A DNA stretch of 5,944 nt from a virus. Taxonomy: Duplodnaviria; Heunggongvirae; Uroviricota; Caudoviricetes. The stretch lies in the IMG/VR virus record IMGVR_UViG_2531839200_000013; one strand, 5' to 3'. Made by a program: the position numbers. Below, one piece after another: positions 3,001 through 5,944 of the stretch; within the stretch, counting starts at the first letter, position 1, and the number at the start of each line of letters is the position of its first letter.

Positions 3001-5944
3001 AAAATTGATGCTATAGCGTTTTTTGGCAGCAAAACAAAGCTTGCCAATGTCGCAGGAGTTAGGCTGGCAAGCGTTGCTGCATGGGGGGAACTGGTTCCTG
3101 AAGGTCGCGCGATGCGCCTGCAAGAGGCATCCGGCGGGGAACTTCAGTACGACCCCAAAGTTTATGACGAATATCGTAAGGCAAAGCGGGCGGGGCGGTT
3201 GAACAATGAAAATCACCACTGAACAGGTTTGTGAGGCTCTGGATACCTGGGTATGCCGACCAGGAATGACACAGGAGCAGGCGACGATATTAATCACGGA
3301 AGCATTCTGGGCTCTGAAAGAACGCCCGAACATCGATGTTCAACGCGTCACGTTTAATGATGGCGAGGTTGATCAACGGGCGCTGGGCGTTAACCGGGTG
3401 AAGATATTCGAACGCTGGAAAGCTATCGACACCAGAGATAAGCGTGACAAATTCACGGCGCTGATTCCGGCAATTATGGAGGCTATCCGGATCAGCGATT
3501 TCAGATTGTATTGTGAAATTACTGACGGAAAAAGCATTACGTACATGATCGCCGGGTTAAACAAAGAATATGGCGATGTGGTGGAGTCCGGGCTGCTTTT
3601 TGCGGATCCAGTTGTTGTGGAACGTGAGACTGACGAGCTTATAGAAAAAGCTATTGCTTTCAAGCACGCGTATCGTCAGCAATACCAATATTACTTTGCA
3701 GATAAACAAATGTCTGCCAGGGGGGCGTATGAGTATCGATGCACTACGATGGGCTAAAAAGGTGAAAACCGGCAGTTCATCCAGTAAGTCAGTATTGACC
3801 TGGCTTGCTGATATGTGCGGTGCCGATTTGTGTGCATACCCGTCTGTATCTGCACTGGCAGAAGTAACGGAACTGAACAAAAAGACTGTGCAGGACAGCT
3901 TACGACACCTGATGGAGATTGGGTTAATTGTTGATACCGGTGAGAGAAAAGGCAGAACAAAGCAAATTGTGGTGTACCGACTTATCGGTGTAGAAGAAAG
4001 TGTTGCCGAGCCTGAATACACCCAAAAACGGGAGTCTTTAAAGGTGGGTAAAATTGGTGCTGTTAATAAAAACAGTACCGAAAATGGTTATGTTTCAGCA
4101 CAAAACAGACCCAAAAACAGAACTCTTAGCTGCATGGAAAATAACCAAAGACACCCAAATTTTCCATCAAAGACACCCAAAAACGGATCACGGAACCCAA
4201 AGGAACCCAAAGATCTAAACCCCACACATAACGCACGCGAGAGTGCTCCGACCAGTGAGCAGGAAGTTTTGTCGTTACAGGCAGCCCCCCCTGTATTCCT
4301 GTATGGCCTGAGCGAACCCATCGGAAAATTCCCGATGAGCGATAGCTGGTATCCGTCACGGGATTTTCGACGACGGGCTGCGTTGTGGGGGATGGCTTTG
4401 CCGGAGACAGAATTTACACCTGCTGAACTTGCCGCCTTCCGGGACTACTGGGCAGCGGAGGGGAAAGTGTTTACGCAGATTCAGTGGAGCAGAAATTCGC
4501 CCGTCACGTAAATCACGTCAGGGCGCAGGTTAAACCAGTCAGCAAAGGGGTAAACCATGCAGCAGCACCAGGTGGCACCGCATCACGGGCAGTTCAGGAA
4601 ATTCGGGCAGCACGTGAGCAGTGGGAACGTGAAAACGGATTTATCAGCGACGGAAACGGCCTGGAAGCTGTGGGAACTCATGGGGGTGGTTTATTCGAAC
4701 CGCTGGATCCAGAAGAACGGGGCCGCACCTTCGAAGCTCTGGATTGCACAGATTGGCGCGATGACTGAGCAGCAAATCCGGCAGGTCTGCCGCCAGTGCA
4801 TGGACCGCTGCCGGGCGGGTGAAACATGGCCTCCGGACCTGGCTGAGTTTGTGGCACTGATTTCGAAAAGCGGAGCCAATCCATTCGGTCTGACGGTGGA
4901 TGCTGTGATGGAGGAGTACCGCCGCTGGCGCAATGAGTCCTGGCGATACGACGGAAGTGATAAGTACCCGTGGTCTCAGCCTGTGCTGTATCACATTTGC
5001 CTCGAGATGCGTTCAAAGGGGATTGAGCGCCAGATGACCGAAGGGGAATTAAAACGGCTTGCAGAACGGCAACTGACGAAATGGGCAAAGCATGTTAGTA
5101 ACGGCCTGAGCGTTCCGCCAGTCCGGCGACAACTGGCGGCCCCCAAACGCCCGTCGGGGCCAACGCCAATTGAGTTGCTGAAACAGGAATATGAACGCCG
5201 GAAAGCGGCTGGTTTTGTTTGAGTTGAGAAGTGATTTTTTACCGGGAGGAAATTTATGGAGACTGTTTTTGACGCACTGAAAGCGATGGGAAAAGCCACG
5301 TCGGTATAGCTGGCTGCGCGACTTGATATCAGTCGTGAAGAAGTACTGAACGAGCTGTGGGAACTGAAAAAGGCTGGCTTCGTTGATAAAAGCGTATACA
5401 CCTGGCGTGTGGCTGATAACAACGTTCAGCAGGAACAGCCAGCGCCAGAAGAAACCACCACGGCAACAGAAGCGAAAATCTCAGAGTGCGATTTAACCGC
5501 GACGATTGAACAACGCGGACCACAAACGGCGGATGAACTGGCTACGCTGTTCGGTACAACATCCCGCAAAGTTGCTTCAACGCTGGCAATGGCAATCAGC
5601 AAAGTGAACCGCCCCGGGTTTCCTGGAGAGTGTTTTATCTGTGAACTCAGGCTGCCAGATCATCGTTTCCGATGGAAGCATAATAAGCTTTTTCTGCTTC
5701 TGCCGGAGGAGTATGGCCCAGCCTTCCCAGCAATCGTCGATTGTTATACCAGTCCACCCACGTTAGTGTGGCCAGTTCCACTTCTGCACGGTTTTTCCAG
5801 CTCTTACGGTGTATTACCTCCGCTTTGTAAAGACCATTGATGCTCTCAGCCATCGCGTTGTCATACGAGTCGCCTGTACTCCCTGTTGATGCCAGTAATC
5901 CGGCTTCTTTTAGTCGCTCCGTATAGGCCAGTGACACATACTGA

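Follow-up and report, generated by a model that had tools for sequence, protein, structure and literature searches.

An origin of replication placed inside the gene of its own initiator is an arrangement of a known kind, represented by oriλ in gene O and by the P22 ori in gene 18. Work on lambda and on the Shiga toxin (Stx) phages P27 and 933W shows that O dimers bind the intragenic iterons and that these iterons are essential, also where the mutations made in them are synonymous (PMC7466680). Here we analyzed a 5,944-bp stretch of DNA (the window) from the virus record IMGVR_UViG_2531839200_000013, which, according to the gene order, the Pfam and PHROG scans, and the annotated PPompW_132418, is the immunity/replication region of an Escherichia coli lambdoid prophage. 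It shows 99.6% identity to the PPompW prophages of E. coli that produce Shiga toxin (STEC) across the initiator region (3729–4768). The original prediction, drawn from the sequence alone, had proposed an iteron-type origin inside the initiator gene, as in lambda, and all points of this proposal accessible to computation agreed with it. We consider it likely, with a probability of roughly 0.8, that the repeat array at 4015–4211 is a lambda-type replication origin of this lambdoid prophage, lying within the linker-coding part of the initiator gene. Conceptually, this only extends the lambda/P22 paradigm. The assignment of an origin to the less-studied initiator family with a helix-turn-helix (HTH) domain of the HTH_36 type and the family-wide iteron consensus are new, and neither was found in the searchable literature. 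The 11-mer CCCAAAAACGG and its complement occurred in no paper of that literature, which also gave no description of this origin; a paper on the replication region of non-lambdoid Stx phages did not mention DnaT, HTH, or iterons.

The locus resembles oriλ and the six-iteron origins of P27 and 933W in that the iterons directly follow the part encoding the N-terminal origin-binding domain, lie inside the open reading frame (ORF), and encode a linker. As in oriλ, the gene for a P-family loader is placed immediately downstream, cro and a cII-like gene precede the module in the early rightward operon, and the N-domain and the iterons are inherited as one module. The TCCC...A-tract...GGGA dyad layout of the lambda iterons (ATCCCTCAAAACGAGGGA, ATCCCTCAAATTGGGGGA) is recognizable, although in the window only iteron 1 has the full dyad; 6 nt separate CCC from GGG here, compared with 9 in lambda. 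Unlike lambda O, the initiator has an HTH_36 instead of a Phage_rep_O N-domain, and a DnaT-like domain in place of the lambda O C-domain. Another difference from oriλ is the lack of a clear AT-rich tract on the 3′ side, where a 10-bp tandem is found instead, together with an AT-rich stretch inside the array. The P22 ori (rep_origin in NC_002371) occupies nt 353–497 of gene 18, the same placement as that of the array (approximately nt 287–483 of its gene). In P22, the direct repeats are followed by a GAATCAGTCA... segment similar to the AGAAYCAGTCAT class II repeats of phages phiV10, Her, and Edno5 described below; it resembles the Edno5 units (GAATCAGTCAT) and differs by one mismatch from the phiV10 and Her units. 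In contrast to the window, the P22 gp18 is a Phage_rep_O protein, the P22 iterons read TCGGTAAAAC, and a DnaB-type helicase replaces the P-like loader as the partner.

Iteron plasmid origins (RK2, R6K, pSC101, F, and P1) contain direct-repeat sites of approximately 17–22 bp bound by winged-helix initiators. The rep gene does not include these sites, and DnaA boxes and a separate AT-rich element accompany them. The window lineage shares with them the spacings of 22 bp and multiples (22, 33, and 44 bp in this lineage), but its array is intragenic and there is no DnaA box nearby (none of the TTATCCACA type, with at most one mismatch, within 2.7 kb of the array). The Rac-type YdaU modules show approximately 89–90% nucleotide identity to the window in the C-terminal half and the P-like neighbor, and have the same operon context (dicA, dicC, ydaT). 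They differ in the N-domain (DUF1376 or an unrelated one) and are devoid of the CCCAAAAACGG array; their origin must be specified differently. In comparison with E. coli DnaT, the initiator has an extra origin-binding domain and a P-like loader as a partner, and thus it is not a DnaT orthologue. The match to the NCBIfam DnaT equivalog NF002770 reached 93.5 bits against the cut-off of 201 and was confined to residues 194–278.

Anatomy of the array and of its initiator

The motif ACCCAAA was found exactly six times in the window, at 4020, 4109, 4153, 4175, 4195, and 4205, always on the plus strand and never outside the segment 4020–4211, in agreement with the predicted cluster of at least six copies in about 200 bp. 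In 200 dinucleotide-preserving shuffles, the mean number of copies was 1.16 and the maximum 5, with six never being reached. The two identical 14-mers (ACACCCAAAAACGG) announced at 4018–4031 and 4173–4186 were present at these positions, and a copy with two mismatches was detected at 4107–4120. The start-to-start distances between the ACCCAAA copies were 89, 44, 22, 20, and 10 bp, the later copies being approximately 4, 2, 2, and 1 helical turns apart, which bears out the proposed spacing at about one or two turns. The view of all six copies as iterons stood only in part: four of them are iteron cores, but the last two form a separate 10-bp tandem, and one iteron (4071–4091) had been missed. 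The sites listed below were scored with a position weight matrix (PWM) derived from sites picked by a hand-written pattern, four window sites included, and the scores are therefore partly circular.

3729–4768, plus strand: replication initiator gene (Pfam HTH_36 and DnaT PF17948; PHROG 1032 'replication initiation protein')
4015–4035, plus strand: iteron 1, AATACACCCAAAAACGGGAGT; PWM 29.6 bits, the best match to the family consensus, with the full small dyad CCC-N6-GGG
4041–4061, plus strand: degenerate site AAGGTGGGTAAAATTGGTGCT, aligned with the full iteron AAGACACCCAAAAACGGTGCT of phage EPP-1; PWM below 8 bits
4071–4091, plus strand: iteron 3, AACAGTACCGAAAATGGTTAT (TACCGAAAATGG); PWM 10.6 bits, aligned to EPP-1 iteron 3
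4104–4124, plus strand: iteron 4, AACAGACCCAAAAACAGAACT; PWM 22.6 bits
4148–4168, plus strand: iteron 5, AAGACACCCAAATTTTCCATC; PWM 14.0 bits, aligned to ACACCCAATTTTGG of EPP-1
4170–4190, plus strand: iteron 6, AAGACACCCAAAAACGGATCA; PWM 24.6 bits, 22 bp after iteron 5, as in EPP-1
4192–4211, plus strand: class II element, the 10-bp tandem GGAACCCAAA x2 containing the last two ACCCAAA copies (Tandem Repeats Finder, which reported 2.1 units at 4192–4212)
4030–4150, no strand: most AT-rich and least stable stretch of the gene (GC approximately 0.34–0.41), inside the array; candidate unwinding region

Five sites of at least 10 bits, located at 4015–4190 directly after the winged-helix coding part, are spaced by 56, 33, 44, and 22 bp, which places iterons 3 to 6 in an 11-bp phase. 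Neither the window nor 11 kb of PPompW nor an 8.46-kb plasmid described below had sites of this score outside the array. Iteron 1, identical in the Edwardsiella phage EPP-1, also gave a reverse-strand PWM match because of its dyad. It is the only one with CCC-N6-GGG; the right arms are weak or absent in the other window iterons (CGGA, CAGA, TTCC). Iteron 3 carries TGG, the commoner state among the E. coli alleles, some of which have the consensus CGG (AAAACGG, with C at 4085), and iteron 4 has CAG, a minority state, since CGG prevails among the E. coli alleles (allele counts at position 4119). The right half of iteron 5 is the AATTTT variant found also in EPP-1, Edno5, and AP22. The alignment suggests that the site at 4041–4061 is probably a decayed or altered iteron.

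Two inverted repeats were also noticed inside the array. The arms of the perfect 9-nt repeat ATGGAAAAT/ATTTTCCAT (4134–4167) are separated by 16 nt and flank the left half of iteron 5, and the 13-nt repeat TGGTTATGTTTCA/TGGAAAATAACCA (4085–4147) is 85% complementary. Both lack conservation in EPP-1, where this part carries a deletion.

The intact initiator allele, present in the PPompW phages, encodes 346 amino acids (aa) that form a winged helix (aa 1–89), a disordered linker (aa 90–209), and a DnaT-like C-terminal domain. The AlphaFold predicted local distance difference test (pLDDT) score was 77–92 for aa 1–89 and below 50 for aa 90–209. The C-terminal domain matched the Pfam DnaT DNA-binding domain PF17948 at aa 201–267 with 61 bits. 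The array encodes aa 97–161, between the winged helix and the DnaT domain. Hence, the claim that the repeats encode the linker between the HTH and the DnaT-like domains was correct, as the array segment falls within the disordered part and ahead of the DnaT match.

The six ACCCAAA copies are read in codon phases 0, 2, 1, 2, 1, and 2, giving the peptides TQKR, RPKN, HPNF, TPKN, NPKE, and EPKD. When the synonymous codons were resampled 20,000 times with the protein fixed, six copies were never obtained; the maximum was five, reached five times. Thirteen repeated 10-mers were observed, whereas the resampled sequences had 1.2 on average and 8 at most. Since the motif occurs in all three codon phases and synonymous resampling never reproduced the six copies, the repeats are a DNA-level and not a protein-level feature. 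A similar excess was obtained in synonymous permutations of eight of the nine phage-record initiators with the HTH_36 N-domain and in lambda O, used as a positive control; AP22 reached the excess in 44 of 2,000 permutations, similarly to the negative controls. The permutation test alone does not separate DNA-level selection from recent duplication.

The array among HTH_36 initiators

The tblastn search with the N-domain retrieved 73 phage records, and nine lineages were examined: PPompW, EPP-1 and Edno5 of Edwardsiella, Bcep176 of Burkholderia, AP22 and Ab105-2phi of Acinetobacter, Mcat8 of Moraxella, Her of Vibrio, and phiV10 of E. coli. Two lineages, a Klebsiella prophage and a metagenomic contig, were added, and the diversity discussed here rests on these 11. 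Scans of viral contigs gave only near-identical E. coli loci and were used solely for the allele survey. The identity of the N-domain to that of the window ranged from 36 to 77% among the ten relatives (71% for EPP-1), and the domain was Pfam HTH_36 in nine of nine relatives.

A direct-repeat array starting approximately 260–320 nt into the gene was present in all 11 lineages, the opposite of what had been set beforehand as the refutation of the origin, i.e., the absence of the repeats from conserved homologous initiators. The partly palindromic consensus AAnnA(A/T)CCCAAAAACGGGA is common to 10 of the 11 lineages, and Mcat8 has its own motif. The iteron variants among the HTH_36 phage initiators are CCCAAAAACGG, CCCAACAACGG, GTACCGAAATTGGTAC, and the Mcat8 motif; the form of the metagenomic contig is GTCCCAACAACGG. 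The spacings across the lineages are 17, 18, 22, 24, 26, 33, and 44 bp. The motif is read in all three frames in Bcep176 and in two or three in EPP-1 and PPompW. In EPP-1, six good iterons are spaced by 26, 33, 33, 33, and 22 bp, and the alignment showed that this array is positionally homologous to that of the window. Palindromic copies were found in Klebsiella (GATCCCAAAAACGGGATC), Edno5 (ATCCCAAAATTGGGAT), and the metagenomic contig (GTCCCAACGTTGGGAC), and are consistent with binding by winged-helix dimers.

The C-terminal domains differ among the relatives (DnaT-like, lambda-O C-domain, Phg_2220_C, and others) with the array being retained, and the downstream partner is a P-like loader in some and a DnaB-type helicase in others. 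A natural chimera is seen in Edno5, where the HTH_36 N-domain and the array are joined to the C-domain of lambda O and P comes next. Rac-SA53 YdaU and phage pPE4 share the C-terminal half with the window from approximately 4209–4213 onward (89–90% nucleotide identity); with other N-domains, they have no array. Judging from these comparisons, the array goes with the N-domain and not with the C-domain, because it is kept when the C-domains vary and is absent when the N-domain is replaced. This tie is strict across the distant phages compared.

In every relative, the last iteron is immediately followed by two to four tandem units of 10–13 bp with the form (C)AGAAYCnnnnn, as exemplified by AACCAGTCATAT x3 in phiV10, GAACCAGTCAT x2 in Her, and GGAACAGTAG x4 in Bcep176. 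In the window, the GGAACCCAAA tandem takes the place of these class II repeats, which is the position of the AT-rich region of lambda and P22.

In Klebsiella pneumoniae CP063913 (L178:1501-2515) and in the metagenomic contig (L179:1501-2201), the initiator was called as two ORFs, the first comprising the winged helix and the array, and the second the C-terminal part. These may be either decayed genes or true two-protein versions. The Klebsiella array has one inverted iteron (GATCCCGTTTTT) that faces a palindromic iteron 16 nt away, and the array of the metagenomic contig runs across the boundary of the two called ORFs.

The N-domain with the array was detected at ≥95% identity in 908 of 5,426 complete E. 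coli genomes, including the prophages of O157:H7 and other STEC. A single E. coli genome carries up to four copies of this module, and therefore several co-resident prophages may share one origin specificity. The circular 8,461-bp E. coli plasmid record NZ_CP148379.1 of assembly Z1323HEC0067 consists only of the repressor, cro, ydaT, initiator, and P genes, besides the accessory genes for DUF5677, an ATP-binding/HNH protein, hokD, and rem, and no other replication gene is annotated in it. It looks like a natural lambda-dv-type mini-replicon derived from this prophage type. If the record is real, it places the origin within the repressor-to-P module.

The array as a probable origin and the alternative explanations

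By homology with lambda O/ori, dimers of the initiator winged helix would recognize five or six iterons of the CCCAAAAACGG type, which would be built on a small dyad, (T/A)CCC-N6-GGG(A), enclosing an A-tract and have lineage spacings in multiples of 11 bp (33, 44, and 22 bp). The nucleoprotein complex may then distort the adjacent, easily melted DNA, either the AT-rich stretch inside the array or the GGAACCCAAA tandem at its 3′ end, and initiate unwinding. The DnaT-like C-terminal domain would recruit the P-like loader encoded just downstream and the host DnaB, and rightward early transcription is expected to cross the origin. In the nearest-neighbor calculation (40-bp windows), the duplex stability at 4030–4150 ranged from −48.6 to −52 kcal/mol, compared with the mean of −55.8 (standard deviation of 4.2) for the whole window.

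Several observations weigh against the origin assignment. There is no clear AT-rich region 3′ of the array as in lambda, the next 60 nt having a GC content of 0.53, and the least stable DNA of the window is found in the intergenic promoter regions, the array containing only a moderate minimum. Regarding the protein, the N-domain gave no Phage_rep_O (PF04492) match at E ≤ 0.01, a family matched in Pfam by both lambda O and P22 gp18, and the winged helix matched the lambda O N-domain only weakly when their profiles were compared (hhalign probability of 6%). In 41 E. coli alleles, no higher conservation of the iteron cores than of the spacers was detected (8 of 66 versus 18 of 112 variable positions, a comparison of low power), and the PWM scores have the circularity mentioned above. 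The plasmid NZ_CP148379.1 may have arisen as an assembly artefact, the searchable literature yielded no experiment with a member of the HTH_36 initiator family, and the initiator of the window is a pseudogene.

Residues 3–167 of the initiator and 1–172 of lambda O both matched phrog_678 and phrog_345 ('replication initiation O-like'), which supports a link to lambda; for the N-domain, these profiles provide the sole tie to Phage_rep_O, an indirect one. The search of solved structures with the N-domain sequence yielded only a generic winged-helix regulator, and Foldseek with the winged helix gave generic ArsR/MarR-type folds, with no replication initiator among the top matches. The fold resembles dimeric ArsR/MarR proteins.

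The pseudogene status of the window initiator results from a 1-bp deletion in the GGG run at approximately 4484–4486 (GTGGGAG to GTGGAG), revealed by the alignment with PPompW and most E. coli alleles. The reading frame shifts after aa 252, the ORF stops at 4509–4511, and the rest of the DnaT-like domain lies in another frame (4484–4768). The origin copy in the window is therefore probably orphaned and could fire only with an intact initiator of the same specificity supplied in trans. The O157:H7 strain F3113 showed a 100% match to 4300–5604 of the window over 1,305 nt, versus 1,306 nt in other strains, and for this reason it probably carries the same deletion.

We regard it as unlikely that the repeats bind the initiator but serve autoregulation, a transcription roadblock, or copy control, with the true origin located elsewhere. 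Plasmid iterons also mediate autorepression and handcuffing, and neither a strongly AT-rich flank nor a DnaA box was found beside the array. However, the sites lie inside the gene and not at a promoter, and neither the window nor the 11 kb of PPompW nor the 8.46-kb plasmid had further consensus sites. The array also lies exactly where the origin is proven in lambda and annotated in P22, and the conserved second class of repeats that follows it takes the place of the AT-rich unwinding region of these two phages.

The 3′ tandem itself raises the idea that the origin is bipartite and that this slippage-prone element doubles as a genetic switch, turning the replication competence of the prophage on and off reversibly instead of reflecting simple decay, which we find improbable. 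The GGAACCCAAA unit is present in two copies in the window and in 76 of 76 IMG/VR loci, in one copy in 7_14_50A (L015), and in three copies in L182 (1164–1193). Only two copies keep the initiator in frame; one or three lead to a frameshift and a product limited to the N-domain, terminated by the TAA in CACACATAA immediately past the array. Truncated proteins of this kind, called 'helix-turn-helix' or 'primosomal', make up database clusters with 14 and 37 members, and the protein search with the N-domain returned mostly N-domain-only truncated ORFs. Such N-domain-only proteins, encoded by the one- or three-copy alleles or by the separate ORFs of the Klebsiella and metagenomic relatives, could act as origin blockers or regulators.

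It is quite improbable that the repeats are a by-product of the low-complexity Pro/Lys/Asn linker, generated by slippage and in-frame duplications and devoid of any function in DNA. The array does encode a disordered linker, the copy number of the 10-bp unit does vary by slippage, and the iteron cores were not detectably more conserved than the spacers within E. coli. The unit spacing of phiV10, Her, Ab105-2phi, and Edno5, 18 or 24 bp and in frame, is what recent in-frame duplications would produce. Against this, one DNA motif is read in several frames and as several peptides (TQKR, RPKN, and HPNF in the window; TVPN, NSPNF, and QSQK in Bcep176), the spacings of 17, 22, 26, and 44 bp are not multiples of 3, and the motif is kept across hosts though the N-domain identity drops to 36%. 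The dyad symmetry of the sites is unnecessary for a peptide repeat, the array of the metagenomic contig continues across the ORF boundary, and the array is gone where the N-domain has been replaced.

Finally, a role mainly as a recombination joint, i.e., conserved DNA at a domain boundary that promotes the exchange of initiator modules, is highly improbable: the homology to Rac-SA53 and pPE4 does start right after the array (at approximately 4209–4213) and variability among the E. coli alleles jumps 3′ of it (0.42 versus 0.07–0.14), but a joint needs no five to seven phased, dyad-symmetric copies, a mosaic boundary is expected there if an N-domain has to be passed on along with its iterons, which is known of lambdoid O genes, and a joint would be compatible with, and secondary to, the origin reading.

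The surrounding prophage region and the meaning of the assignment

The genes around the initiator are as follows.

2511–2918, minus strand: DicA/CI-type repressor gene (Pfam HTH_3 and Phage_CI_repr; dicA in the PPompW annotation), divergent from the cro-like gene
2995–3222, plus strand: P22-Cro-like gene (Pfam P22_Cro), in the same rightward operon as the initiator
3206–3757, plus strand: YdaT/CII-like gene (Pfam YdaT_toxin; PHROG 163 'CII-like')
4761–5222, plus strand: lambda-P-family helicase loader gene (Pfam PF06992, E 4e-16; PHROG 109 'P-like helicase loader', E 2e-54)
After the loader gene, cut at 5605: DUF1627 gene, ended by an insertion sequence (IS) of the IS629/IS1203 type

The start of the loader gene overlaps the initiator stop at ATGACTGA. 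The scan for promoters and terminators showed nothing near the array. The DUF1627 gene is interrupted by the end of the IS3-family element (IS629/IS1203 type) at 5605–5944, with the terminal sequence TGAACCGCCCCGGGTTTCCTGGAGAG..., and the C-terminus of its transposase is encoded at 5647–5937 on the minus strand. In O157:H7 PV15-279, the same IS type is placed inside the initiator gene instead. The premature TAG at 5307 in the DUF1627 gene was considered as a lesion and rejected, as an O157 strain with the identical sequence has the gene start annotated downstream.

The divergent repressor/cro intergenic region (2919–2994) is the least stable DNA in the window and contains several short inverted motifs of the TTAGG/CTAAG type, e.g., CCTTAGGAAAATCTAAGG, which are probably operators. 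Just 3′ of the repressor gene, the non-coding segment 2411–2454 carries a 23-bp direct repeat (AAGCTTCTTGTGTAGAAAAACCT x1.9, 86% match). A small ORF on the plus strand (1969–2168), starting with MNTIKFSCPECGG, has TAA at 2008–2010 followed by an in-frame second CxxC (AICKNCGH), and looks like a zinc-ribbon gene with a nonsense mutation; in related prophages, an opposite-strand ORF is annotated at this location.

The assignment of the array as the likely origin gives a putative origin and an iteron consensus, (A/T)CCCAAAAACGGGA, to proteins annotated only as 'DnaT-like ssDNA-binding domain-containing protein' or 'primosomal protein'. It may help in the interpretation of frameshifted or split initiator genes and in the design of lambda-dv-type vectors. 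It would also help to predict which co-resident prophages share origin specificity and might cross-activate one another or defective copies.

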